From: Deltaproteobacteria bacterium RIFCSPHIGHO2_01_FULL_43_49
GTDB taxonomy: Bacteria; UBA10199; SPLOWO2-01-44-7
DNA length: 64,000 bases
Assembly (NCBI GenBank): GCA_001798075.1
Contig: MGRG01000005.1
Coordinates: 1,148 to 65,147 of the forward strand
Direction of reading: 5' to 3'
Numbering within the stretch: the stretch's first letter is position 1; each line of letters starts with the position of its first letter. This document shows, in pieces, positions 20,239 to 56,659 of this stretch. A program made the position numbers and the translations under genes. The notes beneath the pieces are model-generated. The model searched no databases, was not told the origin of the DNA, and saw only the letters and a program-made list of their open reading frames with translations.

Positions 20239-21192
20239 ATGCGGCGGGGAGAAGGAAAAGTTCTTGGCTTCATCGTTTTTGCGGTCTCCATTATTCTTTT
20301 CGCGCCGACCACTTTCGCCGCACCGAAATCCAAAACCAGAAAAACTGAAAAAAAAGAGCCCCTAGCCGCCTCCGCAATGGTTGGCGATTCGGTCTGCCAA
20401 AACTGCCACGAGGATCAACTTGCAAAATTTAATAAAACCTTGATGGCAAAATACCTCTATTCAAAAACAAAATCCGGAAAAGAAACCTTTGCTTGTGAAA
20501 CATGCCACGGCCCCGGCAGGGCCCATTCCGAAGCGGGCGGGGGTAGGGGAGTCGGTAATTTGATCACCTTTGGCAAAGGGGCTACCACGCCGGCGGAAAA
20601 GCAAAACGCCGTCTGCCTGCAATGCCACAGTGGAAATGACAGGTTTTTTTGGAATGGAAGCCCTCACGATTCCAAAGAGGTTGCCTGCACCAGCTGTCAC
20701 AAAGTGATGGAAAATGCCACCGAACGTTTCCAACTTTCCAAGTCCAGTGAGATTGAAACCTGCGGACAATGCCACCAGCAAAAAAGGGCCCAACGGATGC
20801 GCTATTCCCACATGCCCCTTCGGGAAAACAAGATGAAGTGCACCAGTTGCCACAGCCCTCACGGATCGGTATCGGATAAATTGCTAAAAGGAAATTCAAT
20901 CAATGAAATGTGCTACTCTTGCCACGCAGAAAAACGTGGGCCGTTCCTCTGGGAACATGCCCCCGTTGCCGAAAGTTGCACGAACTGCCACGACCCCCAT
21001 GGAAGCAACAATGAAAGAATGCTAACGCTGCCAAAGCCAAGGTTGTGCCAACAGTGCCACGTTGAAAGTGGACACCCAACCACCCCACAAAGATTAACTG
21101 CGACTCGTTACTTATCTGATCAAGCTTGCAACAACTGTCATTATGATGTGCACGGCAGCAATCACCCGTCGGGCAAGGCCTTTACGCGGTAG
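20239..21192 (+). CDS. periplasmic decahaem cytochrome c, MtrA/MtoA/DmsE-like
   Basis: The product has a signal peptide and ten CxxCH motifs in 317 aa (CQNCH, CETCH, CLQCH, CTSCH, CGQCH, CTSCH, CYSCH, CTNCH, CQQCH, CNNCH). Size and haem number match MtrA/MtoA. Confidence 0.8.
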   Translation: MRRGEGKVLGFIVFAVSIILFAPTTFAAPKSKTRKTEKKEPLAASAMVGDSVCQNCHEDQLAKFNKTLMAKYLYSKTKSGKETFACETCHGPGRAHSEAGGGRGVGNLITFGKGATTPAEKQNAVCLQCHSGNDRFFWNGSPHDSKEVACTSCHKVMENATERFQLSKSSEIETCGQCHQQKRAQRMRYSHMPLRENKMKCTSCHSPHGSVSDKLLKGNSINEMCYSCHAEKRGPFLWEHAPVAESCTNCHDPHGSNNERMLTLPKPRLCQQCHVESGHPTTPQRLTATRYLSDQACNNCHYDVHGSNHPSGKAFTR

Positions 21193-21200
21193 GAGGATCT

Positions 21201-23363
21201 ATGCAACGTGGGAGAATACTATTTTCAACTCTTGCAGGTTGCATTGCCCTTCTACACATTGCCGCTAATAGTTACGCCGAGACCAAATTGTTTGGCTTTA
21301 AAACAGATGGTGAACTCTCGGCAGGGGGCCGAGCTTATTTGGAAGAACTCCCCTATCAATTTGAAAAGGCGAAGCTCGAAGAATACCGCGATCTGAGACA
21401 GCAATTCTTTTTGGACAAATTCCGCCTCGGCCTGGAAAGCGAAGACAAGCCCACTCTTTTCGAAATTGGGGGATCACTGGCAGGCCAACGTGATCAAAAC
21501 TTTTTCTTAAAAACCACCCAACTTGGAACCTATAACTTCGAGTTTGAATGGGACCAAATGCCGCATCTCTATTCAACGAGCGGTCAAATGTTGGGAACAA
21601 CAATAAGTCCCGGCGTTTATACCTTGGCAAGCCCTCGACCAACCGGGGCTCAATTTAACGCGGCGCCCTTCATCGATCGAATCGCCGCTCAATGGAATAC
21701 AGCACGCTTTCAAATTTCTTACCAGCCTAGTGATGAGTGGGATCTTTCATGGAAATATAATTGGATCATGAAGGGAGGGGAGCGCCCGCTCGGTATGGCA
21801 TTTGGAACTCCCGGAAGCAATTTTCGCGAAGTTTTGGAACCGGTGGAACATGATATCCATGATTTCCAGTTCACATCCCGATATGCAAAAGAAAAATACC
21901 AGCTTCAGTTCAACTACAACCTTTCTCTTTTCGAAAACAGCCTGAATTCGGTCACTTCAGACAACCCCGCTTCGGCAACCGATGGGGCCTTTGCTGCCAC
22001 AGCAACCGGTGGCTCCAGCACTCCAAGCAGGGGGCGAACAGCGCTGGCACCGGACAATGTGGCTCACACCTGGAGCCTTGCGGGTAGCATTCAACTACCT
22101 CACAAAACACGTATCAATAGTTCCTTTTCCTACAGCTGGCGGATTCAAAATCAGATTTTTATCCCTCATACCATCAACCCAAACATCCCTACGGCAAATT
22201 TGACGCTGCCCCAATCCGCACTGGAAGGAGAGGTGGGTGTCTTGTCTTATAATTTTAATCTGACCAGTAAACCCCTTGATAAGCTGACGCTGACCACAAA
22301 ATACCGTTTTTATCGCTTCGACGATGACAGCAGCACAATTATTTTTCCTGCATATGTGGAGGATGATCGAGTATTAGTAAACGGCAATCTCACCGCAGAG
22401 AGATATTCCTTCGATAAACACAAGGCTTCATTCGACGCCCGTTGGCAATTGTTAAAGCCGCTCGCATTGACAGCGGGAATGGATTGGGAACGCTGGGATC
22501 GTGGCTCTCATCGTGAAGCCCGAGAGACCGATGAGTATACGCCGAGGATATCTCTAGATTTAAAACCGAGTCATCGAGTACTTTTCAGGGCCACCTACTC
22601 TCCTTCCATTAAAGTAATTGATAATTATATTCCCCAATCTTCTCTGCAACATGTCTCCTTGCGCAAATTTGACGAAACCTCAAGGCAACGTCATAAAGTC
22701 GATTTTTTCACCCAACTTACTCCCTGGGATAATTTATCAACCAGCATCAATTTCAATTACAAAAACGACGATTATCAAGATTCCACATTTGGATTGCAAG
22801 ATTCTGAGAGCTGGTCTGTCGGAACAGATCTCTCTTGGAGTCCGACTGACCGACTGACATTGTTTGGAAACTACACAAGAGAAGAATATTTTTCCAAACA
22901 AGCCTCCCGCTCCAGAGCAACGGGAATTTTGGAAAACACTGCCTATGATTGGGTTGCAAAAACGAAAGATATTATTGATACCGCCAGAGTGGGATTTGAT
23001 ATCGCATTGATACGCAACAAACTAAATTTGAGTGCCAACTGGGACATTTCCCGTCAATCAACCAAGATGGATGCCTTCAACCCACAAACTCCAACGGGCG
23101 GCACAGCCGCTCAAAACACTACGGCAACGGCCAATGACTTTCCTGCCATCAAAAGCACGCTCAACCGTTTTGAATCCTATCTAAAGTATCGGTTTGGCAA
23201 GGCGTGGACCGCCAAGTTTGCCTATCTCCTTGAAGACTTTGACAGAGACGATTTTCGCACCGACGGCCTGGTACCAACAACAGGAAGTGATATCGTCCTG
23301 GGCAGCGCCCCTCTCGATTACACAGCCCACATCGTTGTCGCCACATTGGGCTATCAATTCTGA
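21201..23363 (+). CDS. outer-membrane beta-barrel protein, MtrB/MtoB/PioB-like porin partner
   Basis: The 720 aa product has a signal peptide, alternating amphipathic Tyr/Ser/Thr/Asn-rich segments, and a C-terminal ...VATLGYQF ending in Phe, the usual OMP terminus. It lies immediately downstream of the decahaem gene. Confidence 0.6.
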   Translation: MQRGRILFSTLAGCIALLHIAANSYAETKLFGFKTDGELSAGGRAYLEELPYQFEKAKLEEYRDLRQQFFLDKFRLGLESEDKPTLFEIGGSLAGQRDQNFFLKTTQLGTYNFEFEWDQMPHLYSTSGQMLGTTISPGVYTLASPRPTGAQFNAAPFIDRIAAQWNTARFQISYQPSDEWDLSWKYNWIMKGGERPLGMAFGTPGSNFREVLEPVEHDIHDFQFTSRYAKEKYQLQFNYNLSLFENSLNSVTSDNPASATDGAFAATATGGSSTPSRGRTALAPDNVAHTWSLAGSIQLPHKTRINSSFSYSWRIQNQIFIPHTINPNIPTANLTLPQSALEGEVGVLSYNFNLTSKPLDKLTLTTKYRFYRFDDDSSTIIFPAYVEDDRVLVNGNLTAERYSFDKHKASFDARWQLLKPLALTAGMDWERWDRGSHREARETDEYTPRISLDLKPSHRVLFRATYSPSIKVIDNYIPQSSLQHVSLRKFDETSRQRHKVDFFTQLTPWDNLSTSINFNYKNDDYQDSTFGLQDSESWSVGTDLSWSPTDRLTLFGNYTREEYFSKQASRSRATGILENTAYDWVAKTKDIIDTARVGFDIALIRNKLNLSANWDISRQSTKMDAFNPQTPTGGTAAQNTTATANDFPAIKSTLNRFESYLKYRFGKAWTAKFAYLLEDFDRDDFRTDGLVPTTGSDIVLGSAPLDYTAHIVVATLGYQF

Positions 23364-24325: not shown

Positions 24326-24342
24326 AAATTCGAGGTTTTATA

Positions 24343-24780
24343 ATGCAACGTGGTTTTATTGTCTTGCTTCTTATATGTGTTGCGGGTTGCAGTAGCTATT
24401 TTACCCCCTATCACTCTGAAACAGCCCCCTCTCTCGAGAGTGGGATTTTGCTTGCGGGAACAATCATCATTGATTCAAAACTTCATAAAAAAATCCAACC
24501 AAGCGACACCCTTTATATCATTGCTAAAAAGGGAGATGGAATGCCTCCTTTGGCAGTCAAAAAAATGGCCGTCGGGGCATTTCCCCTAAAATTTGAGTTG
24601 GGGTCTCAGGATATCATGATGCACGGGGCCTCTTTAGAAGGGGATGTTATTCTAGTTGCCCGCATTGACCAGGACGGGATGGCTGGCCCTCCACAAAAGG
24701 GAGATCTAGAGGGGAGAACAGCAAAGCCGATTTCTATCGGTGACCAATCTATTGAAATAAAAATCGATAAAAGTTTTTAA
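24343..24780 (+). CDS. hypothetical lipoprotein
   Basis: The product has a signal peptide with a lipobox, LLICVAGCSS. Confidence 0.5.
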   Translation: MQRGFIVLLLICVAGCSSYFTPYHSETAPSLESGILLAGTIIIDSKLHKKIQPSDTLYIIAKKGDGMPPLAVKKMAVGAFPLKFELGSQDIMMHGASLEGDVILVARIDQDGMAGPPQKGDLEGRTAKPISIGDQSIEIKIDKSF

Positions 24781-26126
24781 TTCCCCAATTCATACACTAT
24801 CCACTCCGAAAAGGTTTCCGGACCTCGATGTTTTGGGAGATCTTCATCCCAAAGGGCAAATGAGGCATAACCCAATTGGGGAATGGGGGCATCCTCATTT
24901 TCTGCCGGTCGGAGCGTCCTTCTAAAAATCACATGCCAACTCCCCTGATAATATACCCCTTTGCCGGTCACATTTTGTCTCATCAAATCTTGAGGTTTCA
25001 ACTGTCCGACACCACCTGCATTGAAGTCTTTGAAGGAACCCGCCTTCCATTCCCAAATGTTTACTTTTTTGGAGGCACTTCCCATGCCAAGATAAGGTAA
25101 CTCGATAGGATTGGTTATTGTATCCATTGGGAGCTGAATCGCGGCGGCGTCACTTTGATTAGGATCCACATTCATCCGATCATCTTCCCACTGGATATAG
25201 AACGCAATCTCTTTGTCATTATGCAGGGCTTTTATGGTAAGCCATTCCGTCGCTTCGGGTTCATGCCATAGATGTTTTAGAAAAACGGGGATGCTGGAAG
25301 TTTTTTCCCATGCCTCATCTTCATAATCTAAAGGAATTTCTCCGTTTATTTTGGTAACGGGGAGCAAATTCCTTTTTGGACTGGAAGGATCATATCCCTC
25401 CGGGAGGGGCCTTTGAATAGATTTTAGGTAATGGACGAGTGACCACATCTGTTCTTTTGAAAAGGTGTGTTCATAGCCAGGCATCGGCGTCCCGGGAATT
25501 CCTATCATGAGGGTGCGGTAAATATCCCTGGTGGTATTTCCCCATTTCAAAGGGCCACGAGTCAAATCCCTTGGCGCAATCCTGTCTCCCCAAACATCTT
25601 TTAAAACAATAGCTCCCGGTCCGTCTCCTTTTCCTTGAAGACCGTGGCAAGCGACACAACCGCTTTTTTCGTAAAGTTCCCGTCCCGACTGAATCGATTC
25701 GGGCGTCTTCTTGGGCTCTTCAGGGGTGTCCACAGAAGGACCCGCTTTCTCATTGGCCAATCTTGGATTGAAGGATTTTAAGTATGACAAAATTGATCGC
25801 CAATCCTCCATGCTCAGCAAGTCCCAGCCGGGCATTGATGTGCCGGGGATCCCAAGTTTCATGGTCTGCAACAAATCGAGATCGGCAGGAACGGCCCCCC
25901 TTGTCCTGCGGTATTTAAAGATGCCTGAAGTAAAATCCCTCGGCTTTGGCCATAAAAATTCGGCGATAGGCCCCTTGCCGTCTCCTTTGGAACCGTGGCA
26001 TGAAGCACAATGAACTTCATAAAGATGTTTTCCCTGAGTTGTTGAAACCTCTCGGCTTGTGTCTCTGCAAGCTCTTTGCTGGCAAGAGAGTGATAGAGCA
26101 AGCAAAATAAAAAAAACTCTTTTCAC
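24777..26126 (-). CDS. dihaem cytochrome c with a C-terminal ~230 aa domain of unclear family
   Basis: Two class-I cytochrome c motifs are present, CASCHGSKGDG and CVACHGLQGKGDG, each followed by the Met-containing GIPGTxMPG motif. The gene is the last in the Rieske/cytochrome b operon. Confidence 0.7.
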   Translation of the reverse strand: MKRVFFILLALSLSCQQRACRDTSREVSTTQGKHLYEVHCASCHGSKGDGKGPIAEFLWPKPRDFTSGIFKYRRTRGAVPADLDLLQTMKLGIPGTSMPGWDLLSMEDWRSILSYLKSFNPRLANEKAGPSVDTPEEPKKTPESIQSGRELYEKSGCVACHGLQGKGDGPGAIVLKDVWGDRIAPRDLTRGPLKWGNTTRDIYRTLMIGIPGTPMPGYEHTFSKEQMWSLVHYLKSIQRPLPEGYDPSSPKRNLLPVTKINGEIPLDYEDEAWEKTSSIPVFLKHLWHEPEATEWLTIKALHNDKEIAFYIQWEDDRMNVDPNQSDAAAIQLPMDTITNPIELPYLGMGSASKKVNIWEWKAGSFKDFNAGGVGQLKPQDLMRQNVTGKGVYYQGSWHVIFRRTLRPAENEDAPIPQLGYASFALWDEDLPKHRGPETFSEWIVYELGN

Positions 26127-27736
26127 TATTTTCCTCGTTTCTGGGCTGCAAGGTAACTGGCCAAGTTTTCAATATCTTGAGTTTCAAGGATTGATCCAAA
26201 TTCCGGCATGGCGGCATCCGGGTTTAACAATTGAGGATTTTGAATATAGGCCCGAATCCATTCGGCTACCCTGAAGTTTCCGATGCCACTCAAGTCGGGA
26301 CCCACGTCGCCACCCTCTCCTTTCAACCGATGACAGGTTTGACAATTCTCCTGGTATATTTTTGCAAGTCTTGCCGTGAAAATACCACTCCCCCCAACAT
26401 CCCTCAAGTATGCAATGAGGGCGTAAATCTCTTCATTCAAGAGATTCAACTCCGGCATGGCGGAACCTGGAGTCGCTTCACGAGGCTTACGAAAATGAAC
26501 CTCCAACCATTCATCCGATCTGGAAGAAACGGTCAACGATAAATCGGGCCCAACAGTCCCCCCTTCACCCCGAATCTGGTGACAATAAGAGCAATGCAAA
26601 TCGGCATAAATTTTCTTCCCGTGAAGCACCATCGGATTTTTTTCGATTTGGGGATTCACCAAGGGGGATTTCCATCCCTGATAAGAGAGTAAAAGGATAT
26701 AACCTACCGCAAGAAGACCGGCTGTCATCCAAACGGGTCTTGCAAAGGGGTGTCTTTTTGTCCCTCGATCCAAAAAAGGAAGAAGCAGCAAAAAAAGGAT
26801 CAGGATAGTGGGCAAGACTACCGCGGCGAGATACTCCAAGTTTCCTGGAAAAAGTTTGAGCATTTGAAACAAAAAGAGAAAATACCACTCGGGCCTGGGG
26901 TTATAAGAGGCATCGGTCGGATCTGCGGGATCTTCCAAGTCGGCCCCAAAATAAATGCTTAGGAAAAAAAGAATTCCAATGACTGTCGTAATCATCACTA
27001 AATCTTTAAAAATACTGTGGGGATAAAACGATTTCCCTTTCGCCTTCAGACTTTCGTAATCGGGCGGTTCAGAGCCCGGAGGATGGGGGGGAGCAGAAAT
27101 CCCATGATAAACCACCAAGAAAAGATGGGTACCGATGAGAAGGGCCATAAAGGTTGGCAAAACAAGGACATGAAGGGCATAAAACCTTGTGAGTGTCATC
27201 GCCCCTAATTCCTCACCACCTTTGAATATCTTAGCGATCCAGAGACCCAAAAACGGTGCCTGCTTGGAGATGTTGATCCCGACGGCCGTGGCCCAATAAG
27301 CCTTTTGATCCCAAGGAAGAAGGTATCCTGTAAACCCCAAACCGAAGGCAGCTAGAAGCAAAAAGATACCCACAATCCAAGTTAGCTCCCTTGGAGATTT
27401 GTGCGAACCCATGCAGAAGGTTCGAAGCAGGTGCAAAACCAAAAGGATGATCATTGCGGAGGCGCCCCATTTATGGAGCCCGCGGATCAACCCCCCTAAT
27501 GGAACCTCTGTCATGATGTAGCGAATCGATTCGTAGGCATGATCCGGAGAGGGCGAATAATTCATTCCCAAAAACATTCCGGTCAGGACTTGAAGCAAAA
27601 AGACGGCCAAGGTAGCCGACCCCAATGTGTAAGCCCAAGCCCAACGACCCGGGTTTGGAATTTTTCGATCCAAAAGTGTTTGTTTAACAGAAGACCAACC
27701 CAAACGATTACGAAGCCATTTGAAGGGGGATTCCAT
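26126..27736 (-). CDS. cytochrome b of a bc-type complex fused to a C-terminal dihaem cytochrome c
   Basis: The N-terminal region (GSATLAVFLLQVLTGMFLGMNY...RGLHKWGASAMIILLVLHL...PEWYFLFLFQMLK) matches cytochrome b/b6 plus subunit IV helices. The C-terminus carries CSYCH and CQTCH with the GxGGxVGPDL pattern. Confidence 0.85.
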   Translation of the reverse strand: MESPFKWLRNRLGWSSVKQTLLDRKIPNPGRWAWAYTLGSATLAVFLLQVLTGMFLGMNYSPSPDHAYESIRYIMTEVPLGGLIRGLHKWGASAMIILLVLHLLRTFCMGSHKSPRELTWIVGIFLLLAAFGLGFTGYLLPWDQKAYWATAVGINISKQAPFLGLWIAKIFKGGEELGAMTLTRFYALHVLVLPTFMALLIGTHLFLVVYHGISAPPHPPGSEPPDYESLKAKGKSFYPHSIFKDLVMITTVIGILFFLSIYFGADLEDPADPTDASYNPRPEWYFLFLFQMLKLFPGNLEYLAAVVLPTILILFLLLLPFLDRGTKRHPFARPVWMTAGLLAVGYILLLSYQGWKSPLVNPQIEKNPMVLHGKKIYADLHCSYCHQIRGEGGTVGPDLSLTVSSRSDEWLEVHFRKPREATPGSAMPELNLLNEEIYALIAYLRDVGGSGIFTARLAKIYQENCQTCHRLKGEGGDVGPDLSGIGNFRVAEWIRAYIQNPQLLNPDAAMPEFGSILETQDIENLASYLAAQKRGK

Positions 27737-27739
27737 TTT

Positions 27740-28219
27740 CTAAACCTTTTCTTTTAGTGTGGGGAGCATCCAGAGTTTTCCCGCCTCCACCTTAACATCA
27801 TAACGATCCAAGGGTCTCGGTGGTGGACCAGAGATAACTTGTCCATCAACGTCAAACACAGCAGCATGACAGGGACATAAAAACTTCTCTTTTGCCTCAT
27901 CCCATCGATAAGGACAACCCAAATGGGTGCAGCGAGGATCAAACACCGTGAACTCTTTCCCATCCCTTGTGAGAACCCAAGCAGTGCGTTTTTCCTCAAC
28001 CGTCATCCATCCATCTTTTCTTCTTTGGATGAATTCAATTTTTGTCGGTTTACCGACAGGGATTTTTTTGGTCTCCCCAAGCAAGACCCAATCTTCTATG
28101 TGTTTTTTCCATGCCGGCGACAAAAAGTAGGTTGCAATGGGCGCCAAAAGGGAAATCCCGACCACAGAACCCAAGCCATAAATTGCGAGTTCCAAAAATT
28201 TTCGGCGATCCATTGTCAT
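27740..28219 (-). CDS. Rieske [2Fe-2S] iron-sulfur protein (Tat-exported)
   Basis: The product has a twin-arginine motif RRKFLE and the Rieske boxes CTHLGCP and CPCHAAVF. Confidence 0.85.
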   Translation of the reverse strand: MTMDRRKFLELAIYGLGSVVGISLLAPIATYFLSPAWKKHIEDWVLLGETKKIPVGKPTKIEFIQRRKDGWMTVEEKRTAWVLTRDGKEFTVFDPRCTHLGCPYRWDEAKEKFLCPCHAAVFDVDGQVISGPPPRPLDRYDVKVEAGKLWMLPTLKEKV

Positions 28220-28947
28220 GGTTTACGCAAAGATTCTCTGGCGTTCTTCAATTCTTTGAGCAATTTTTCGGACTCGCTCGACACAAAGACAACATCAAAA
28301 GAGTGCCATTTCCTTTGAATTTCTTGGTAGCGCCTCAAAAATTCTTCAGGGGTCTTCCCTTTGCGCAAGGCCAACTCTTTTTGATAAGAGCCCAAAGATT
28401 CCTTGATGGCACGGATGAGACTCAAGGCTTTGGCGGCCTGTGTCGGTTTTCCATGGCACAAAGAACAGGTCTTATCCAAATCGGAATAGGATAAAATGGT
28501 TGTGGCCATGGCTCCGTGGCAAGTAAGACAGTTGGGCCCCTTGCCCGTGCGCAAAAGCATTTTGTAATGAGCACTCGTTTCAAATTCTTTTAACTCTTCC
28601 GTGTGGCAAGTCCCACAAGTTGCCGGAACATTTTGGAAATAGATTTTCGAATTCTTATCTTTGGAAGACAAGACTCCTTGGTGGGCCTTGACAGGATCTG
28701 GTGTCTCTGCATTTCCCCCGTGACATGCTTCACAACCGACCCCTGATTTAGCGTGGATCGATTTTTCCCAATCCTTATAATTGTGCCCCAGGTACTTGGA
28801 GCCTTGCTGCTTGCGATGGCAATCAACACAAGAGTCATTCTTCGAAATCGCAGTTTGTGAAAAAAAGAAGAGAGAAAAACACAAACAAACTAAAAGGAAG
28901 GGTTTTCTCATTATTTTACAAATAATATATGATGCTTTTTTATTCAA
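28216..28947 (-). CDS. pentahaem cytochrome c (membrane-anchored or secreted)
   Basis: Five CxxCH motifs are present (CVDCH, CEACH, CGTCH, CLTCH, CSLCH) behind an N-terminal hydrophobic segment. The stop overlaps the Rieske start. Confidence 0.75.
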   Translation of the reverse strand: MNKKASYIICKIMRKPFLLVCLCFSLFFFSQTAISKNDSCVDCHRKQQGSKYLGHNYKDWEKSIHAKSGVGCEACHGGNAETPDPVKAHQGVLSSKDKNSKIYFQNVPATCGTCHTEELKEFETSAHYKMLLRTGKGPNCLTCHGAMATTILSYSDLDKTCSLCHGKPTQAAKALSLIRAIKESLGSYQKELALRKGKTPEEFLRRYQEIQRKWHSFDVVFVSSESEKLLKELKNARESLRKP

Positions 28948-29043: not shown

Positions 29044-29328
29044 ATGAAAACATTTCTTTCTTTTCTAGTAGTGGGGTTGCTCGGCGCTACCGCTCAAGCA
29101 GCCGGTGCAGATGGCGCAGCCCTTTTCAAGGCCAAGATGTGTGGGGCCTGCCACGCCGAAGGGAAAAAGGGGGGCGATCTCAAAAATTCCACATTGGATA
29201 AGGCGACCATGGTCCAGTTCCTGAAGGATCCCAAGGCCATGAGGCCAAAGACGACCAAGACCCCCGTAAAGGCAACGGATGAAGAATTGAGCGCCTTGGC
29301 CGATTATGTTATCAGTTTACGGAAATAA
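29044..29328 (+). CDS. small monohaem cytochrome c (paralog of 38011-38289)
   Basis: The product has a signal peptide, a single CGACH motif and a C-terminal amphipathic helix, 94 aa in total. A GGAGG Shine-Dalgarno lies upstream. Confidence 0.8.
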   Translation: MKTFLSFLVVGLLGATAQAAGADGAALFKAKMCGACHAEGKKGGDLKNSTLDKATMVQFLKDPKAMRPKTTKTPVKATDEELSALADYVISLRK

Positions 29329-29351
29329 TCGTCCCTTTAAACTATTAAGCT

Positions 29352-38289: not shown

Positions 38290-38366
38290 GACTTCCTCCT
38301 TTTTTAAAAGAATCATAAATGGCAAAAGAGCAATATGAGCCAGATCATTCTTGGGCCTGATCTTTA

Positions 38367-42669: not shown

Positions 42670-42736
42670 CTGATCCAAATCATGTCCTCATAACTTCCCA
42701 TTTCTGCTATTTTAACCCTCAGATTTTGGAGAGAGA

Positions 42737-44332: not shown

Positions 44333-44338
44333 CACTTT

Positions 44339-49518: not shown

Positions 49519-50121
49519 TTACTGATTTTGTTTGATTTTTTCTATCTGGTCTTTAAGATATTCTTTTGTGAGGACACCTGAGAATTTGTTTTGGATGAGC
49601 CCTTTGGAATCTATAAAAAAGGTCTCTGGGACACCTCCCACCCCATAGTCAATGGCCATTTGGCTTTTGGGATCGAAAAGAACGAGAAAAGGCTCTCCCA
49701 ACTCTTTTACAAATTGCACGACGGTTTCCTTTTTATCCTGATAAACTACTCCTAAAAATTTTACCCCCTCTTTTTCGTAAATTGAGCGTACCTCCTTAAG
49801 AACGGGGTGTTCATAAAAACAGGGGCCGCACCAGGTTGCCCAAAAGTTGATGACGACAGGCGAGCCTTTCAAAGAAGGAAGATCGATTTTTTTACCATCG
49901 AGTGTCTCCAGTAAAAAATCGGGGGCCATTTTTCCAACCATCGCTGATGGAAGCTCTCTGGGATTTCTGGTCAGTCCAAAGGCTAAGAGATAAACGATCG
50001 GGGCAACAATCAATATAAAAAGCAGCCAGCGTTTTAACACGGGGGCTCCCCCTCTTTTTTCTTCATTCCAGCGGAAATGAGAACTCCCAACACAATGACC
50101 CCACCACCACCCCAAATCCAA
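49519..50121 (-). CDS. ccmG: thiol:disulfide interchange protein CcmG/DsbE (thioredoxin-like)
   Basis: The product has a TM anchor followed by VVINFWATWCGPC, the CcmG WCxxC motif. The true start probably lies downstream of the ORF-track start, because this gene overlaps the ccmF 3' end. Confidence 0.75.
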   Translation of the reverse strand: MDLGWWWGHCVGSSHFRWNEEKRGGAPVLKRWLLFILIVAPIVYLLAFGLTRNPRELPSAMVGKMAPDFLLETLDGKKIDLPSLKGSPVVINFWATWCGPCFYEHPVLKEVRSIYEKEGVKFLGVVYQDKKETVVQFVKELGEPFLVLFDPKSQMAIDYGVGGVPETFFIDSKGLIQNKFSGVLTKEYLKDQIEKIKQNQ

Positions 50122-51938
50122 GAAACGGCAGGAGTCACCATCGTCCGGATCGTTGCCTCAAGACGGTTATGTTCAAAAGCCATGAGGGTTAAATATAAGT
50201 CTCCTGTCACAGTTGAATAAACGGCAGGGGAACCGACCGGTTCTCGATTATTCGGATAAAAATTGAGTTTGGGATTTAAATATCCAAGGGGCCTTCCATT
50301 TTTAAAAACCTCGATTTTTGCGATGACTTCAAAACGTTGTGGTTGTGGGTCCCCGTATAATTTATCCAGTTTGATTTGATATGGTTCCATTTCAAAAATA
50401 TCCCCCAATTTCAAGTGGACCTGATTTTCCTTTTGATAGTTTCCGGAGAGCGCCACTCCAATTGAAACGAATATAATCCCGATGTGGACGACAAATCCCC
50501 CATAGCGTCTTGGGTTTAAAGAAAAAACCCTTTTGGCCCTCCAAAAAACAGTGGCCATTTCGATCAACATAATGGAGAGAGACAATGTTGCGAAAGCAAC
50601 TGTGATTAAAACGAGTGGTTTTTTTATGCCTAAGATAAAAGCAATGACGACAGCAACAGCCATCAGCAAAACGGGCCATCGAAGAAGTTTAAGAAGGGTT
50701 TTGGGATCTCCCTTTTTCCAGGGAAGGGCGACACCCACCCCCATGAGCAAGATGATGAGGAGGGCCAGGGGAACAACCATTTGATTGAAAAAGGGGGCGC
50801 CAACCGTGACTTTCACACCGCGCAACGCTTCAACAATCAGGGGATACATTGTCCCCAATAAAACAACGAAACAAAAACAGACGAACAAAAGGTTATTGAT
50901 TAAAAAAGCTGTCTCACGACTTAAGGGGTGATCCAATTTTCCGGGACTTTTGAACTGCGGCCCCTTCCAGATCAAAAGGGCAGTGGCAATGGCCAACGCA
51001 ATTCCAATGCTAAACAAAAAGTAGAGACCAATTTCAGACTCCGTAAAGGAATGAACACTGTCGAGGACACCGGAGCGGGTTAAAAAGGTTCCGAGCAGGG
51101 TCAGGAGAAAAGTCATGCAGATCAAAACGAGATTCCAAATTTTGAGCATCTGGCGGCGTTCCTCCACCATGATGGAATGCAAAAAAGCGGTTCCGGTAAG
51201 CCACGGCATGAAACTCGCATTTTCCACCGGATCCCACGCCCAATAACCTCCCCAGCCCAAAACCGCATAAGACCACCAGCCCCCAAGGACAATGGCTATT
51301 GATAAAAACATCCAAGCGATCAAAAACCAGCGCCTGGTGATTGAAACCCAGGCATTACTCAAATCTCCTGTTACAAGACTCGCAATCGCGAAGGAAAAGG
51401 GGACACTCATTCCGACATATCCCAAATAAAGCATTGGGGGATGCAGACCCATAAGCCAGTGGTTTTGAAGAAGTGGATTGGGGCCGGGACCATTGTCTGG
51501 AACGGGATAAACACTCTGAAATGGATTCGCAGGAATTGCGAGAACAAGATAAAAGAAGGCGCCAATGGCAAATAGAGAAATACAAACCCACGGCATCAAA
51601 TTTTCAAACTTGTTTCGATTGCGATAAATACACAAAGCGGTATAGCCAGACAATACCCAACCCCAGAGCAAGATCGATCCCTCCAGAGAACTCCACAACG
51701 AAATGGCCGCATAAAATCGTGGTGTTTCTTTAGCCCCCACATGGGCGACATAGCTGACACTAAAGTCGTTCGTAAGGAGTGCCACCATCATGCCCAAACC
51801 GGCAACCGTCATCGCAAAAAAGTTGGTGTAGGCCAGTTTTCTTGCCACAGCCATTTTGCCAAAATAGGCAAAGGCCATTCCAGCAAGGGAAGAGGCAAGG
51901 GCCAAAAAGATGCAGATGTTTCCGATAGTATTAATCAT
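50034..51938 (-). CDS. ccmF: cytochrome c-type biogenesis protein CcmF (haem lyase)
   Basis: The 634 aa polytopic product carries the WD/W-rich motif GGYWAWDPVENASFMPWL. Confidence 0.9.
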   Translation of the reverse strand: MINTIGNICIFLALASSLAGMAFAYFGKMAVARKLAYTNFFAMTVAGLGMMVALLTNDFSVSYVAHVGAKETPRFYAAISLWSSLEGSILLWGWVLSGYTALCIYRNRNKFENLMPWVCISLFAIGAFFYLVLAIPANPFQSVYPVPDNGPGPNPLLQNHWLMGLHPPMLYLGYVGMSVPFSFAIASLVTGDLSNAWVSITRRWFLIAWMFLSIAIVLGGWWSYAVLGWGGYWAWDPVENASFMPWLTGTAFLHSIMVEERRQMLKIWNLVLICMTFLLTLLGTFLTRSGVLDSVHSFTESEIGLYFLFSIGIALAIATALLIWKGPQFKSPGKLDHPLSRETAFLINNLLFVCFCFVVLLGTMYPLIVEALRGVKVTVGAPFFNQMVVPLALLIILLMGVGVALPWKKGDPKTLLKLLRWPVLLMAVAVVIAFILGIKKPLVLITVAFATLSLSIMLIEMATVFWRAKRVFSLNPRRYGGFVVHIGIIFVSIGVALSGNYQKENQVHLKLGDIFEMEPYQIKLDKLYGDPQPQRFEVIAKIEVFKNGRPLGYLNPKLNFYPNNREPVGSPAVYSTVTGDLYLTLMAFEHNRLEATIRTMVTPAVSWIWGGGGVIVLGVLISAGMKKKEGEPPC

Positions 51939-51949
51939 TGTAACGGGGT

Positions 51950-52381
51950 CTACTTTCCCTTGAACCTCTTTAAATAGTGAATGACCGTTTTTAAATGTTC
52001 TTGTTCATCCGCCAAAATCCCCTTGATTAAAAGGGCTTCTTTGGGGGGAAGTGGCAGCTTGAGTATCTCTTCGTACAGTCGGATGGATTGGAGTTCCATT
52101 TCGATGTGCGCCTGAAGGGATGCCCTGAGGGAATCGGAACGAGGGACTCGCTTCGGCTCTGGAAGGGAAGGCGTAGAACCTGTTACGGTCGCAACAATCT
52201 CGCTGAATACTTTTGAATGAACCGCCTCTTCTTCAGCAAATCGTTTGAAGGTCTTGCCAATGTGTTCCCCATCGATGATCTTTTGATGGAACAGCTCTGC
52301 TTCATGCTCGTAGAGAGATTCATCTGCCAACTCCTGAATCGCGGCTGTTAAAATCTTTTCCATTTTTTCTCTCGACGGCAT
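51950..52381 (-). CDS. ferritin-like (diiron-carboxylate four-helix-bundle-like) protein embedded in the ccm operon
   Basis: Paired E...ExxH motifs are present (YEHEAELFHQ, EEEAVHSK, EMELQSIRLYEE, ADEQEHLK). The assignment is tentative. Confidence 0.4.
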   Translation of the reverse strand: MPSREKMEKILTAAIQELADESLYEHEAELFHQKIIDGEHIGKTFKRFAEEEAVHSKVFSEIVATVTGSTPSLPEPKRVPRSDSLRASLQAHIEMELQSIRLYEEILKLPLPPKEALLIKGILADEQEHLKTVIHYLKRFKGK

Positions 52382-52396
52382 ATTGCCTCCATTGTT

Positions 52397-52849
52397 TTAT
52401 GGAACTAGTTCCTTATAAATGATGGCGGGTTTTTCGCCCTCTTTGGGGGGGTGATATTCGTTGGAATGTTTGACCATTAAACGATCTGCCTGAAAAGAAC
52501 TTGTCTTCAAAAGTTTACCCTCAACAACAACCCCCATCCCTTCTTGAAACATTTGGGGTGGGGTTTCGTAACTCACAATAGAAATTTCTTTGGATCCATC
52601 CGAGAGCAAAAATTTAAGAGATACCCTTTCAGCATCCCATTGAATAGATCCCTTTTTAACAGTCCCTCCCAGCCGCACCGGTTTGTCATAGGCCAAGTCC
52701 CCCTTGGCCAAAAGTTCTGTCGGTGTGACAAAGTAGACGATATTTTTTTCTAATTTTCCGAAAATAAGATAGCTTAGACCCCCAACAATGATCGCCAAGG
52801 CAAACCCTAAACTAACCCAATTCTTTTTTTGCTTTTTTAAGTCGGACAT
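52397..52849 (-). CDS. ccmE: cytochrome c maturation haem chaperone CcmE
   Basis: The product has an N-terminal TM anchor, a VYFVTPTEL start to the OB fold, and VKHSNEYHPP, the haem-binding His region. Confidence 0.85.
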   Translation of the reverse strand: MSDLKKQKKNWVSLGFALAIIVGGLSYLIFGKLEKNIVYFVTPTELLAKGDLAYDKPVRLGGTVKKGSIQWDAERVSLKFLLSDGSKEISIVSYETPPQMFQEGMGVVVEGKLLKTSSFQADRLMVKHSNEYHPPKEGEKPAIIYKELVP

Positions 52850-52912
52850 AAAGTAAAATTGTATAGAGAATTAAAACACTCCAAGTCAATCCATAACCTG
52901 CAATTAAAAAAT

Positions 52913-53581
52913 TCATTGAATCTCCCCCATTATTTGATTCTCAATTTTTTCTTTAAGCCGACTTAAATGAAATCGATAATAGATAAAAAGAATGAGAATG
53001 AATAAAAAGGCAACAGCATTCAGTCGCAAACTCAAAACCATCTGGGGATCAACCGTGGAGGGACTTGATTGAACCTGGTGAAGAGTCCTCCACCATTTCA
53101 CGCTAAAATAGACGATTGGGACGTTTAGAAAAATAAGCAATCCCAACGGAGCGCTCAAACGGGCCCGTTTTTCTCGATCATCCACAAAAGCCCTGAAGGC
53201 CAAATATCCCACATACAAAAACAATAGAATCGCGGTGGTGGTAAGCCTTGCATCCCAAGTCCACCAAACGCCCCAAGTGGGGCGACCCCAAATGGAACCC
53301 AAAGACAAAGTCAGGGCGGTCAAGACACAACCTACTTCCGCGGAACTAGCTGCCAAATGATCCCAAAACATTTTTTTGCGAACCAAATATAAAATACTAC
53401 TGATAAAAACGATTGAATAGGCGATAAAAGAATTCCAGGCAGCGGGGACATGGACATACATCAGCTTTTGCACCTCTCCCATTTGGGCATCGGGCGGGCT
53501 TCTAAAAAGCCCCCACCATTGTGCAAAGATAAAAAAACCGATAGCCACAATTAAACTTCCATATTGAAAAATCTTCTTCAC
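52913..53581 (-). CDS. ccmC: haem exporter protein CcmC
   Basis: The WWD domain motif GRPTWGVWWTWDARLTTT is present in a 6-TM topology. Confidence 0.85.
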   Translation of the reverse strand: MKKIFQYGSLIVAIGFFIFAQWWGLFRSPPDAQMGEVQKLMYVHVPAAWNSFIAYSIVFISSILYLVRKKMFWDHLAASSAEVGCVLTALTLSLGSIWGRPTWGVWWTWDARLTTTAILLFLYVGYLAFRAFVDDREKRARLSAPLGLLIFLNVPIVYFSVKWWRTLHQVQSSPSTVDPQMVLSLRLNAVAFLFILILFIYYRFHLSRLKEKIENQIMGEIQ

Positions 53582-53584
53582 TTT

Positions 53585-54262
53585 TTAAGCCTCCAAAAGT
53601 AATCCTGCAGTGAGCAAGCAGGCCGACAAAAAAATACTATCAAAAACAAAAAGCATCTCTATCCAAGGTCTGGCTTGAAGAAAAGGGTCTCCTTCCAGGG
53701 CGTATTGTGTGGCAAAAACGCAAGCCAAAAGCAAGGGGATTAGCATCGGGAAAAGCAAAAGCGGTAGCATCACTTGACGCGCTCTGGTCTTGGTAATGAG
53801 GAGGGCATAGAAAGTTCCCAAGGTGGCTATGCCTAAATCTCCCAGTAAAAAAATTAAAACCAAATTCCAAGGTTCTTTAGGGACATCCAAATCATAAAGA
53901 ACCATCATCATCAAAAGAACGACCGTTTGGACGATGAGGACAAAGAGGAAGTTGGTGAAAAGCTTCCCTAAAAAAATGGCGCGATGACTGACCGAGTACA
54001 AAATGAGGCGATCGAGACAACCTTCTTCCGCCTCGGCTTGAAAAGAACGGTCGAGGGCGAGAACAGCACTGAACAAGACAACGAGCCAAAGGAGACCCGG
54101 CGCTAATTTTTTGAGCAAAGCAGTCTCCGGCCCGATCGCAAAACTAAAAAGAAAGATGATTAAAATCCCGAAAAAAAGGATGCTGTTCAATGTCTCCCTC
54201 TTTCTCAGTTCGGAGAGGAGATCCTTATGACAGATGGCAGCCAAACAACGAATGAAATTCAT
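53585..54262 (-). CDS. ccmB: haem exporter membrane protein CcmB
   Basis: The 225 aa polytopic protein sits between ccmA and ccmC. The motif pattern FxxxxxKDLxxExR is typical of CcmB. Confidence 0.75.
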   Translation of the reverse strand: MNFIRCLAAICHKDLLSELRKRETLNSILFFGILIIFLFSFAIGPETALLKKLAPGLLWLVVLFSAVLALDRSFQAEAEEGCLDRLILYSVSHRAIFLGKLFTNFLFVLIVQTVVLLMMMVLYDLDVPKEPWNLVLIFLLGDLGIATLGTFYALLITKTRARQVMLPLLLFPMLIPLLLACVFATQYALEGDPFLQARPWIEMLFVFDSIFLSACLLTAGLLLEA

Positions 54263-54942
54263 AGGATGACGCTTGATGGAATGTTTTTGGGGTCACCAAA
54301 ATAGGCAACCCTCCCTTGATTCAAAACCATGGCCTTGTCACAAAGGGGTAAAACCTCATGATGATCGTGGGAGGCCAAAAGGAGGGTTAGACCCCCCTTT
54401 TTCCAGTTTTGGATGCAGCGGTTCATCAAGGTTTTGCCTTCCCGGTCCAGATTTGCATGGGGTTCATCTAACAAAACAAATTCAGGACTTTCTAAAAGGA
54501 TTCTTGCAAGGCTTAAGCGCTTTCGCATCCCGACAGAGAAAGAGGCGATCGGTTTTCCGCCCACCGCATTGAGCCCTACTTCAGCCATGGCCTCGCGAAG
54601 CTTTTTCACCAGAGGTTTTCGGCCCTTTATCACACAGGAAAATTTTAAATTTTCCTCAGCGGTCAGTGTCTTGTAAAGGCCCAGCTCGTGACCCAACCAC
54701 TCAACCTGATTTCTAATCTTGAGGGTGTTCTGTCTGATATCGAAACCCGCAATGGTTCCCCCTCCCGTCGTCGGCTCCAAAAGAGTGGCCAAGATTTTAA
54801 GGAGGGTTGATTTGCCACAACCATTGGGCCCCAAAATTGCGATACAATCTCCCTTGTTCGCTACAAGCCCAATATCCCTCAAAGCCCAATGAGTGGCAAA
54901 ACGTTGACTAATTCCCGTTAACTCAACGACTCTGGAATTCAT
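54259..54942 (-). CDS. ccmA: haem exporter ATP-binding protein CcmA
   Basis: Walker A (GPNGCGKSTLLK), the ABC signature (FSVGMRKRLSLAR) and Walker B (LLDEP) are all present. Confidence 0.85.
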   Translation of the reverse strand: MNSRVVELTGISQRFATHWALRDIGLVANKGDCIAILGPNGCGKSTLLKILATLLEPTTGGGTIAGFDIRQNTLKIRNQVEWLGHELGLYKTLTAEENLKFSCVIKGRKPLVKKLREAMAEVGLNAVGGKPIASFSVGMRKRLSLARILLESPEFVLLDEPHANLDREGKTLMNRCIQNWKKGGLTLLLASHDHHEVLPLCDKAMVLNQGRVAYFGDPKNIPSSVIL

Positions 54943-55322: not shown

Positions 55323-55411
55323 TTTCTATCATCTTTATATGAGGGCTTTTTTGTGGTTGTTTAGAATTCAGATATTAGAATTTAGGATTTTCCAAAAAAA
55401 AGGGGGGGATT

Positions 55412-56659
55412 ATGAAAAAATTTTTCTGTGTAGCAGGGCTGCTTTCTTTTTTATGCGTCTGGTTGTTTCCTTCCAGTGAAGCCCAAGCCGTTTCGCAATG
55501 GGCCCGAAAATACAAGATGAATTGCCAATCTTGTCACACGGCTTTTCCCAGACTTAACTATTTTGGCGAAAAATTTCAGCGCAATGGCTTCCAGCTTCCC
55601 GAGACAGAAGATGGAGACGAAAATAAGGAAAAACTAAGTGACACGGCTTTCATTGATAATCTTATCAATATGTTTGGTGTTCGTATTGCGGTCTCCCCGG
55701 CATCTATCACCACCAATGGGCTCACAAGACCGGATGGAACAGTGACTACCCGAACCAGCTTTGGTAACACCGATTGGGTCCAATTTTTCTCGGCTGGAAG
55801 TATTTTTAAAAATGCCTCCATTTTTATTGAGACAGAAATAACGAATACTGCCATCAAAAATAACTGGTTTACTCTGGGATATCACAACTTGTTTGGTCAT
55901 AGTCTTTTAAACCTCCGTGTTGGCAAACTAGGTGTCATGAATTGGGTTGGTCAAAGTGGGCGCTTGAGAATGATTCCAAACATCCAAGTGGAGGGTTGGA
56001 AAAATTTTCTGACCGCGGAGGGGACGACTTCAGCATCAACCACCTTGCAAGATCAGGTGGCTATGGGTGAACCCCAGCCTGGCATTGAGCTCTACGGTTA
56101 TAAGGGGCCTTTCCTTTATTCAGTAGGAGTTGTGAACGGGAATGCCTTGACGGACAACAACGAATTTAAAAACGTGTTTGGAACTCTGCGTCTGGAAGCA
56201 ACCGATGGACCCATCCAAGGAAGTTCCATCTCCGGGTGGGGCTATTGGGGAACAGACACGTTTAGTACCGTGCGCCGCAAAGATCGTTTCTATCGTGTCT
56301 CCGGTGCGGCCAACTTAAGATGGAAAAACTGGGATGTGATTGGCGCCTTTCTCCATGGACGGGACAGCGACTGGATTTTATCAACAGCCGCACCAAATCG
56401 AAACACAACTCACGCTGCCTCGGGGCAGGTGGGTTACTTGATCAATCCCAAGTGGTATGCAGCAGCTCAATATGATTATGTCACCGACACATTTAAGAAT
56501 ACGGCGACAACATCCAATTTTTATCACAAGGCGTCGCCTTCGATCTGGTTCATGCCAAGAGAAAACATGCGAATTGGATTGGTCCAGCGCTTTGAATTTA
56601 AGGGAAGAGCGGGTGGCAGACAGCATGAATTTCTCGTTCATGCAAGGGCCATGTTTTAA
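55412..56659 (+). CDS. Cyc2-like fused monohaem cytochrome c-porin (candidate outer-membrane Fe(II) oxidase)
   Basis: The product has a signal peptide and a single CQSCH within ~15 residues of the predicted mature N-terminus (ARKYKMNCQSCHTAFPRLNYFGEKF). The following ~370 aa have an amphipathic beta-strand character and end ...VHARAMF in a C-terminal Phe. Size (415 aa) and architecture match the Cyc2 family. Confidence 0.65.
   Translation: MKKFFCVAGLLSFLCVWLFPSSEAQAVSQWARKYKMNCQSCHTAFPRLNYFGEKFQRNGFQLPETEDGDENKEKLSDTAFIDNLINMFGVRIAVSPASITTNGLTRPDGTVTTRTSFGNTDWVQFFSAGSIFKNASIFIETEITNTAIKNNWFTLGYHNLFGHSLLNLRVGKLGVMNWVGQSGRLRMIPNIQVEGWKNFLTAEGTTSASTTLQDQVAMGEPQPGIELYGYKGPFLYSVGVVNGNALTDNNEFKNVFGTLRLEATDGPIQGSSISGWGYWGTDTFSTVRRKDRFYRVSGAANLRWKNWDVIGAFLHGRDSDWILSTAAPNRNTTHAASGQVGYLINPKWYAAAQYDYVTDTFKNTATTSNFYHKASPSIWFMPRENMRIGLVQRFEFKGRAGGRQHEFLVHARAMF

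Follow-up and report, generated by a model that had tools for sequence, protein, structure and literature searches.

A predicted extracellular electron-transfer gene region combining three outer-membrane conduits in an uncultured groundwater bacterium

Pairs of a decahaem cytochrome and an MtrB-family porin are described as MtoAB in Sideroxydans lithotrophicus ES-1, PioAB in Rhodopseudomonas palustris and MtrAB in Shewanella, while Geobacter carries OmbB-OmaB-OmcB and ExtABCD, clusters of a porin with periplasmic and lipoprotein multihaem cytochromes. Cyc2 joins a cytochrome and a porin in one protein. In the definition of Keffer et al., AxPxFAR[Q/K][T/Y] precedes the haem site and serves as inclusion filter, PxL follows four residues after that site, and the porin resembles OprP and has 16 strands. 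Expressed in Escherichia coli, both Cyc2 of PV-1 and the Cyc2 of a candidate species of Nitrospirota oxidise Fe(II). Here we describe a region that holds relatives or architectural counterparts of all three kinds, positions 20239–57740 of a 64,000-nucleotide stretch of contig MGRG01000005.1 from Deltaproteobacteria bacterium RIFCSPHIGHO2_01_FULL_43_49 (the whole stretch is called the window). Analysis of its genes and of protein models indicates that this region probably encodes a multi-operon, integrated extracellular electron-transfer system that connects the cell surface with the quinone pool, and also the machinery for its assembly.

Outer-membrane conduits and haem motifs

The electron-transfer neighbourhood spans about 37 kb and is arranged in at least seven units on alternating strands. 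The 14 listed open reading frames (ORFs) within 20239–56659 contain 99 CXXCH motifs, and a 94-amino-acid cytochrome c at 29044–29328, absent from the ORF list, brings the canonical count to 100. With 11 CX3-4CH variants the total is about 111, so that the 'well over 100' haem motifs of a preliminary description of this DNA were slightly overstated. Residue shuffles of the same proteins gave an expectation of 0.78 ± 0.82 CXXCH, and the 31 flanking ORFs contain 0; the clustering of haem motifs is real and non-random. A function in extracellular electron transfer is well supported.

The decahaem cytochrome of the MtoAB-type pair scores 263.6 bits against TIGR03508 (cut-off 192.2) and matches chain A (MtrA) of PDB entry 6r2q with an E value of 2.8e-71. 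The porin gene follows after a gap of 9 bp, and its 720-amino-acid product matches PF11854 (MtrB_PioB) with 331.9 bits over profile positions 6–635 of 635, TIGR03509 with 270.3 bits (cut-off 240) and 6r2q chain B (MtrB) with an E value of 6.8e-17. No gene for an MtrC/OmcA-type decahaem surface lipoprotein flanks 20239–23363, and the pair was therefore assigned to the Mto/Pio architecture. Matches to MtrC/MtrF domains elsewhere in the region are mostly short or near cut-off, and none lies in a decahaem lipoprotein. The pair thus resembles MtoAB, PioAB and MtrAB in its composition, and Mto and Pio in having no adjacent MtrC-type surface decahaem gene; a further shared feature is a CbcL/MtoC-type inner-membrane partner encoded nearby. 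Unlike those systems, it has no adjoining MtoD-like or CymA gene, and its host belongs to an uncultured groundwater lineage, not to a known iron oxidiser or reducer. A Cyc2-like gene and the genes of a Rieske/cytochrome b complex are linked to it, a combination for which the literature searched, incomplete in coverage, gave no description.

The Cyc2-like protein has a signal peptide ending in AQA, after which the mature N-terminus reads AVSQWARKYKMNCQSCHTAFPRL. A single CXXCH occurs at residue 38, 12 residues into the mature protein; with its 415 amino acids the protein falls within a definition that asks for a signal peptide, a single N-terminal CXXCH and at least 365 amino acids. AlphaFold2 models of this protein and of the 427-amino-acid porin described below had predicted local distance difference test (pLDDT) scores of 82–84. 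The modelled porin domain has 16 strands, and its top structural match is OprP. Downstream of the haem site, the sequence CQSCH-TAF-PRL contains the PxL motif, with P46, R47 and L48 invariant or nearly so in 38 homologues. Upstream, the ARKY core of the signature is present and invariant across the 38 homologues, within the variant A-V-S-Q-W-A-R-K-Y, in which S stands for P and W for F.

The SQWARKY variant is kept throughout the subfamily of the window protein, and because S and W occupy the P and F positions we classed the protein as Cyc2-like, in a subfamily that has diverged, and did not count it as strict Cyc2. Across 80 species-level loci with Cyc2-like relatives, the motif grades from SQW[AS]RKY through S[QGA]FARKY to the canonical AIPAFARKY of Nitrospira. 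Nitrospira proteins with AIPAFARKY...CxxCH...PRL score 107–114 bits against the window protein over most of the length, at about 29% identity. The window protein thus shares the signal peptide, lone N-terminal CXXCH, PxL and predicted 16-strand OprP-like barrel with Acidithiobacillus Cyc2, Leptospirillum Cyt572, Mariprofundus Cyc2 PV-1 and 'Ca. Mariimomonas' Cyc2, and differs from classical Cyc2 in having SQWARKY, not PxFAR[QK][TY]. Instead of classical iron oxidisers, the sources of its listed relatives are uncultured genomes bearing the labels Deltaproteobacteria, Elusimicrobia, Chlamydiae, Nitrospinae, Zixibacteria and Aminicenantes. FeGenie has reportedly identified homologues of Cyc2 or sulfocyanin in Nitrospira defluvii and Aminicenantes, and a network study placed Leptospirillum Cyt572 beside Nitrospira homologues; both would be compatible with a place close to Cyc2 Cluster 3. 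A 97-amino-acid ORF (55029–55322, + strand) with apparently two hydrophobic segments separates ccmA from the Cyc2-like gene; the public assembly includes it as a gene, and no family is assigned to it.

The remaining conduit is a porin-cytochrome cluster at 40165–46477. The larger of its two big lipoprotein cytochromes (834 amino acids) has 12 CXXCH and 5 CX3-4CH (17 motifs) and ends in two Big_5 immunoglobulin (Ig)-like domains (PF13205, 114 bits); the other (531 amino acids) has 11 CXXCH and 4 CX3-4CH (15 motifs). The two are 40% identical (E value 3e-125), and both are presumed to be surface-exposed. The 427-amino-acid porin was modelled from 27 homologues (pLDDT 83.7, about 22 strands) and has no match to a Pfam or NCBIfam family. 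A full hidden Markov model search found only 265 relatives among 1.84 billion representative proteins, none informatively named, and cluster look-ups of the distant relatives likewise returned no informative names. The cytochromes of the cluster have no sequence relatives in PDB.

The order of porin, cytochrome of about 190 amino acids and protein of about 100 amino acids is constant in close (L004, L089, L090) and distant (L091, L092) relatives. An upstream large cytochrome is present in L004, L091 and L092 and absent from L089 and L090; with the order constant, the core is therefore taken to be the porin/heptahaem/small-lipoprotein triad, the large cytochromes being accessory. By its sequences, the cluster represents a small, unnamed environmental family. 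Like the Geobacter complexes, it combines a porin with periplasmic and lipoprotein multihaem cytochromes and has quinone-active membrane proteins nearby, a likeness of architecture alone, as Pfam, NCBIfam and PDB gave no similarity. Compared with Geobacter and with PCC3/PCC4 (He et al. 2017), the periplasmic partner has only 7 haems and the core includes a conserved dihaem lipoprotein of about 100 amino acids. The large cytochromes carry 15–17 motifs versus 21–60 in PCC3 and are optional in the relatives, and there is no five-helix membrane protein of the PCC3 type.

Inner-membrane modules and supply genes

The genes of the region are listed in Table 1. The Rieske 2Fe-2S gene adjoins a cytochrome b gene encoding both N- and C-terminal domains, as in a Rieske/cytochrome b complex, and the order of this operon recurs in two related loci, L013 and L017. 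In both of these, the parts of the fusion at 26126–27736 are two genes, one for a b6 protein of about 225 amino acids and one for subunit IV with dihaem c of about 320. Two small soluble cytochromes c are encoded in the region, of which the 94-amino-acid protein is a candidate periplasmic carrier.

Table 1 Predicted features of the electron-transfer region and their positions in the window
Feature	Positions	Strand	Details
MtrA/MtoA/PioA/DmsE-family periplasmic decahaem cytochrome c	20239..21192	+	317 amino acids, 10 CXXCH, signal peptide, no lipobox
MtrB/MtoB/PioB-family outer-membrane porin	21201..23363	+	720 amino acids
TPR protein	23472-23957	+	Pfam TPR families
IscA-type iron-sulfur (Fe-S) assembly protein	23987-24325	+	PF01521 60.8 bits
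Ig_CycH lipoprotein	24343-24780	+	PF23892 66.3 bits
Rieske/cytochrome b operon, four genes (next four rows)	24777..28947	-	PF00355, PF00033, PF00032, PF00034, PF09459
Lipoprotein, dihaem c and EB_dh haem-b domain	24777-26126	-	
Cytochrome b6, subunit IV and dihaem c, single fusion	26126-27736	-	536 amino acids; PF00033 167 bits, PF00032 38.6 bits
Rieske protein	27740-28219	-	PF00355 49 bits
Pentahaem c	28216-28947	-	
Small monohaem class I cytochrome c	29044..29328	+	94 amino acids; PF13442 44.3 bits; called as gene in L001
CbcL/MtoC/MtrH-type fusion	29352..32072	+	906 amino acids; 19 N-terminal CXXCH, C-terminal membrane cytochrome b
Second CbcL/MtoC/MtrH-type fusion	32059..33834	+	591 amino acids; 10 CXXCH and HydC/FdnI-like cytochrome b
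NapC/NirT-type multihaem cytochrome	33798..35552	+	584 amino acids; 13 CXXCH and 2 CX4CH; one transmembrane helix, residues 45-72
Quinone-interacting module, three genes (next three rows)	35560..37990	-	Conserved in L013
NrfD/PsrC-type membrane subunit	35560-36729	-	PF03916 154.8 bits
Tat-signal 4Fe-4S protein	36729-37553	-	RREFL twin-arginine motif; PF13247 92.5 bits
Membrane-anchored tetrahaem c	37508-37990	-	160 amino acids; transmembrane helix
Monohaem cytochrome c	38011-38370	-	PF13442 43.6 bits
HemY, protoporphyrinogen oxidase	38367-39692	-	TIGR00562 288.7 bits, cut-off 97.85
CcmH	39743-40120	-	PF03918 104.5 bits
Two paralogous lipoprotein multihaem cytochromes	40165..44332	+	Lipoboxes FSFGC, LTLAC
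Porin	44339..45622	+	427 amino acids; predicted beta-barrel of about 22 strands
Periplasmic heptahaem cytochrome c	45606..46172	+	188 amino acids, signal peptide, 7 CXXCH; PF14522 30.7 bits
Dihaem lipoprotein	46130..46477	+	Likely start 46169; lipobox FLTSC
DtxR-family repressor fused to FeoA	46474-47172	-	PF02742 71.8 bits, PF04023 48.3 bits
FeoB ferrous-iron transporter	47399-49402	-	PF02421 175 bits
ccmA, B, C, D, E, rubrerythrin-like insert, ccmF, ccmG	49519..54942	-	Pfam ABC_tran, CcmB, Cytochrom_C_asm, CcmE, CcmF_C, AhpC-TSA
Cyc2-like monohaem cytochrome-porin fusion	55412..56659	+	415 amino acids; 16-strand porin (predicted)
HemA, glutamyl-tRNA reductase	56697..57740	-	PF05201 129.7 bits, PF01488 126 bits
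Long ORF overlapping cytochrome/feoB genes	29337-30125	-	
Long ORF overlapping cytochrome/feoB genes	45588-46145	-	
Long ORF overlapping cytochrome/feoB genes	47199-47570	+	

The CbcL/MtoC/MtrH family is described as joining an N-terminal multihaem c domain with 3–23 motifs to a C-terminal HydC/FdnI-like dihaem cytochrome b domain (PMC6295460), an architecture and motif range that the two tandem c/b fusions of the region share. The 591-amino-acid fusion scores 49.5 bits against PF01292 (cut-off 30.1) and 58 bits against TIGR01583; its true start is likely 32074, the gene call in L001. The 906-amino-acid paralogue scores 22 bits against PF01292, under the cut-off, and 39.5 bits against TIGR01583, and aligns with the shorter fusion through the membrane domain (E value 3e-73).

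The NapC/NirT-type protein matches PF03264 with 42.9 bits (cut-off 24.1) and TIGR03153 with 70 bits, under the cut-off, and its Elusimicrobia homologue scores 684 bits. Like NapC/NirT (CymA-like) proteins, it has one helix followed by a NapC-type haem domain. Identity with ImcH, which has three N-terminal transmembrane helices with CX3CH beside them, an architecture linked to reducers, was considered and rejected: the window protein has one hydrophobic segment, not three, and its first variant motif is CX4CH at residue 145, after two CXXCH. The region differs from known CbcL and NapC/NirT systems in having two tandem c/b paralogues and a much enlarged, 15-motif NapC-type protein. In the three-gene quinone-interacting module, no NrfH or NapC model was reached by the 160-amino-acid tetrahaem protein. 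Among all cytochromes of the region, none reached the thresholds of the NrfA, HAO or octahaem reductase models in Pfam and NCBIfam. Nitrite-reductase and hydroxylamine-oxidoreductase identities were accordingly rejected, all such matches being far under the cut-offs.

A System I cytochrome c maturation set is present, with Pfam matches for CcmA, B, C, E, F, G and H and a 34-amino-acid gene (52812–52916) at the position of ccmD. The TPR protein and the Ig_CycH lipoprotein look like a split CcmI/CycH by their domain matches. A rubrerythrin/ferritin-like gene (51950–52381, - strand) sits between ccmE and ccmF; the ccm operons of L005 and L007 lack it.

All gene classes listed in the preliminary description were recovered with Pfam and NCBIfam at or close to where it had placed them. 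Its MtrAB/MtoAB-like pair passes curated cut-offs and matches the 6R2Q chains, its NapC-like 15-haem protein is borne out by 13 CXXCH plus 2 CX4CH and a PF03264 score above cut-off, and Pfam together with haem and transmembrane maps confirmed the Rieske/cytochrome b complex and both multihaem c/b fusions. Other labels held in part. The 'Geobacter-type' complex has the architecture and, in Pfam, NCBIfam and PDB, no sequence relation; 'Cyc2-like' stands for fold and homology, with the published signature present only as a variant; and the 'NrfH'/FeS/NrfD module does contain tetrahaem, FeS and NrfD genes, the NrfH label being dropped as the 160-amino-acid protein reaches neither NrfH nor NapC models. 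The hemY, hemA, ccmABCEFGH, feoB and dtxR genes are all there, hemA lying 38 bp beyond the end it had assigned to the region, and ccmD and a split ccmI are additions to that list.

Recurrence in related loci and genomic setting

Synteny was analysed in the 80 species-level loci with Cyc2-like relatives, many of which are short. The Cyc2-like gene adjoins mtoAB homologues in five (L008, L015, L017, L072 and L074). The array in L017 (Elusimicrobia RIFCSPLOWO2_02_FULL_39_32) comprises ten genes on one strand with short gaps, in the order MtoA, MtoB, Cyc2-like, cytochrome c, 7-haem c/b fusion, 14-haem NapC-like protein (684 bits to the window protein), pentahaem, Rieske, cytochrome b6, and subunit IV with dihaem c. 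In L015 (Zixibacteria) the order is Cyc2-like, MtoA, MtoB, two cytochromes c, Rieske, cytochrome b and a 9-haem protein; L008 has a Cyc2-like gene (product 61% identical to that of the window) followed by MtoA and MtoB, and L072 and L074 have MtoA, MtoB and Cyc2-like.

Other loci keep further combinations. In L005, L006 and L009, FeoB is followed by the Cyc2-like gene and then ccm, with FeoA between the first two in L005 and L006, and L073 links the Cyc2-like gene to feoAB and/or ccm. In L005 an aa3-type oxidase lies upstream of the array and a Rieske/cytochrome b complex downstream. In L007, L011 and L013 the Cyc2-like gene is beside multihaem cytochrome genes, and L007 also has a 442-amino-acid gene of unknown family, possibly a porin. 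Judged by these gene orders, the parts of the region are co-inherited, in modular fashion, across phylum labels. The recurrence of Cyc2-like with MtoAB across those labels marks the window as an expanded, rearranged version of a shared design, not a one-off, and the co-localisation that had been called unusual is less so than claimed, the Cyc2-like/MtoAB adjacency being found in Elusimicrobia-, Zixibacteria- and Deltaproteobacteria-labelled genomes.

In 11 Nitrospira/Nitrospirales loci (L077–L087, e.g. L078:9917-12800) a canonical-motif Cyc2 gene is found, followed in 10 of the 11 (not L084) by a homologue of the window gene at 24777–26126. The product, with its dihaem c and EB_dh domains, is a candidate for a conserved periplasmic partner of proteins of the Cyc2 type. 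Proteins with 24–33 haem motifs are encoded at most 10 kb from the Cyc2 gene in L078, L079 and L085.

The window is base-identical to scaffold_17 of ENA ERZ28563625, from a Rifle aquifer sample. Comparison with NCBI GCA_001798515.1 revealed 2 differences in 22163 bases, at window positions 31930 and 29163; the 19-haem c/b fusion gene encodes 859 amino acids in that copy versus 906 in the window, and the shorter reading is probably due to the change at 31930. Identical proteins carry NCBI names from 'Deltaproteobacteria bacterium RIFCSPLOWO2_01_44_7' and 'RIFCSPLOWO2_12_FULL_44_12'. The three long ORFs that overlap cytochrome or feoB genes (two antisense, one running in from upstream intergenic DNA) have one stray CX3-4CH as their cytochrome features and are uncalled in the public assemblies where checked; they were treated as shadow ORFs.

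The left flank (1–20238) contains housekeeping genes, including those for queuosine and folate synthesis, glycerol kinase and a BrnT toxin, and zero CXXCH. The BrnT toxin-family gene and a small overlapping ORF (12958–13507, + strand) are probably a toxin-antitoxin pair. The G+C content is 0.464 in 20239–57740 versus 0.421 in the left and 0.446 in the right flank, and the Cys and His content of the region is about twice that of the flanks; the modest G+C rise may be explained by Cys/His/Gly-rich cytochromes. With this small rise, no tRNA gene in the window and no integrase or transposase among the scanned proteins, the region was not called a mobile island. A scan for FNR/CRP boxes gave 10 matches versus 5.2 expected, with zero in the intergenic DNA of the region and so no support for shared regulation, and a promoter/terminator scan around the Cyc2-like gene found nothing over the shuffled expectation.

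Beyond hemA, positions 57813–62085 encode a cyclic nucleotide monophosphate (cNMP)-binding protein, a beta-CASP metallo-beta-lactamase RNase, a universal stress protein, a VIT1-family iron transporter and a Crp/Fnr-type regulator. In L005 the oxidase/feoB/Cyc2-like array is preceded by a comparable pair of Crp and cNMP-binding genes, a hint of a common regulator. Directly past window position 64000 (L088:11124-21119), moaA, moaC/mog, moeA, moaD, moaE and mobA are followed by a divergent type II dimethyl sulfoxide (DMSO)-reductase-family enzyme (alpha subunit of 1158 amino acids, beta, EB_dh gamma and chaperone), an Alginate_exp-type outer-membrane protein and a DsrE protein. The DMSO-reductase-family enzyme could be a terminal reductase or oxidase partner of the cluster.

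Direction of electron flow and alternative explanations

In the proposed mechanism, the three outer-membrane conduits would act in parallel on different substrate forms, the Cyc2-like protein on dissolved Fe2+, and MtoAB and the lipoprotein-bearing complex on complexed or solid phases. Small periplasmic cytochromes would carry electrons to or from the Rieske/cytochrome b complex and the quinone-active modules. Four inner-membrane modules may take part: the Rieske/cytochrome b complex with extra haem subunits, the two c/b fusions, the NapC-type 15-haem quinol dehydrogenase and the tetrahaem/FeS/NrfD module. Supply of the approximately 100 haems would fall to the ccm, hem, feo and Fe-S genes nearby.

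The preliminary description had named three outcomes that would speak against such a system, namely porins that are not beta-barrels, cytochromes belonging to unrelated families such as nitrite or hydroxylamine reductases, and synteny showing genes that are not co-regulated or co-inherited. The MtrB_PioB match of 332 bits and the models with 16 and about 22 strands indicate that all three porins are beta-barrels, no model of either reductase family was reached, and related genomes repeatedly keep the genes together. As all three came out favourably, an extracellular electron-transfer system is favoured.

Several observations pull the other way. Large surface lipoprotein cytochromes and CbcL-type and NapC-type quinol dehydrogenases are typical of metal reducers, and no terminal oxidase is encoded in the window. 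At least seven transcription units, distributed over both strands, make up the region, its intergenic DNA has no FNR/CRP-box match, and no more than five of the 80 related loci have the Cyc2-like/MtoAB adjacency. The Cyc2-like protein lacks the literal upstream signature, and a profile search with its distant family members reached only uncultured genomes and no Cyc2 of a named or cultured iron oxidiser.

The possibly bidirectional exchange, with Fe(II), Fe(III) or electrodes as substrates, that the preliminary description suggested is an inference. For the direction of flow we lean tentatively, at a little under an even chance, towards a mainly inward direction, that is, oxidation of Fe(II) or minerals, with reversal possible, because Fe(II) oxidation is the only activity demonstrated for Cyc2-family proteins, the MtoAB pair has no MtrC partner, the Rieske/cytochrome b complex is tightly linked, and L005 has a Cyc2-like gene beside an aa3-type oxidase. 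The opposite direction, with reduction of Fe(III), Mn(IV), humic substances or an electrode, appears somewhat less probable. The CbcL-type, NapC-type and NrfD modules would then oxidise quinol, with MtrAB and the porin-cytochrome complex as exits for the electrons, the surface lipoprotein cytochromes as their recipients and the Cyc2-like protein as a minor or reversible outlet. The two large lipoprotein cytochromes, one with Ig-like surface domains, recall Geobacter OmcB/Ext-type complexes, several quinol-dehydrogenase-type modules are present, and one relative has the complex beside genes for 2-oxoacid:ferredoxin oxidoreductase and citrate synthase; CbcL-family and MtrAB-family proteins are in any case known from reducers and oxidisers alike (PMC6295460). 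However, every tested Cyc2-family protein is an Fe(II) oxidase, no MtrC/OmcA-type decahaem lipoprotein adjoins MtoAB, and the NapC-like protein lacks the three-helix ImcH architecture tied to reducers. The minimal complex of L089 and L090 also has no large surface cytochromes, and linkage to the Rieske/cytochrome b complex is tight in several phyla.

Two further explanations depart from a single respiratory pathway. The Cyc2-like protein by itself might serve iron nutrition, as an outer-membrane pore for Fe2+ entry or redox conditioning that feeds FeoB and supplies the high haem demand. Its gene lies in series with feo and ccmABCEFGH on one strand in L005, L006 and L009, and in the window it is divergent from the ccm-feoB-dtxR/feoA unit. 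Yet the family also occurs in feo-free arrays of mtoAB and Rieske/cytochrome b genes, passive diffusion of Fe2+ requires no covalent haem, and tested Cyc2 proteins oxidise Fe(II), which runs counter to Feo-type Fe2+ uptake, so that this role appears improbable. It is very improbable that the cytochrome genes do not form one pathway, having gathered near ccm, hem and feo for shared biogenesis needs, with modules serving unrelated periplasmic redox reactions in nitrogen, sulfur or selenium metabolism or the nearby molybdoenzyme. The division into at least seven units on both strands would fit such a gathering, as would the type II DMSO-reductase-family enzyme and molybdenum cofactor genes just past the window, the occurrence of the minimal porin-cytochrome triad in unrelated contexts (L089, L090), and weak, sub-threshold likeness to proteins of the Geobacter selenite/tellurite Ext operon, DsrO, TtrB and NrfC. 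Set against this are three separate outer-membrane barrels, each paired with or fused to cytochromes, scores below the NrfA, HAO and octahaem reductase thresholds, and the single-strand Elusimicrobia array with partial arrays elsewhere, which biogenesis convenience alone leaves unexplained.

All three conduits of the favoured extracellular electron-transfer system belong to known kinds. Three things are new: a Cyc2-like subfamily whose shifted signature would lead motif-based filters to reject it, a porin-cytochrome family, so far unnamed, whose core includes a heptahaem cytochrome and a dihaem lipoprotein, and the genetic linkage of Cyc2-like and MtoAB genes to specific inner-membrane complexes in several uncultured phyla. 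Literature searches of incomplete coverage found no account of the cluster of this genome or of cyc2-mtoAB operons, which is weak evidence of novelty. More speculatively, the window and its relatives might represent a shared, laterally exchanged electron-uptake supermodule, in which the Cyc2-like pore and MtoAB feed the Rieske/cytochrome b complex and the CbcL/NapC-type quinone reductases, and the triad a new minimal conduit class; we regard this as rather unlikely. If true, this would mean an unrecognised respiratory chain oxidising iron or minerals in phyla from which iron oxidisers are not known, namely Elusimicrobia, Zixibacteria and the present groundwater lineage labelled 'Deltaproteobacteria'.

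Even for cultured iron oxidisers there is no agreed route by which electrons from outer-membrane iron oxidases such as Cyc2 and MtoAB reach the inner membrane. The linkage within the array, which is more compact in Elusimicrobia than in the window, nominates testable partners: the c/b fusion, the NapC-type protein and the Rieske/cytochrome b complex. It also points to candidate iron-cycling roles for abundant uncultured groundwater lineages, and the partial recurrence of the layout in other phyla suggests an overlooked mode of electron exchange with extracellular iron.

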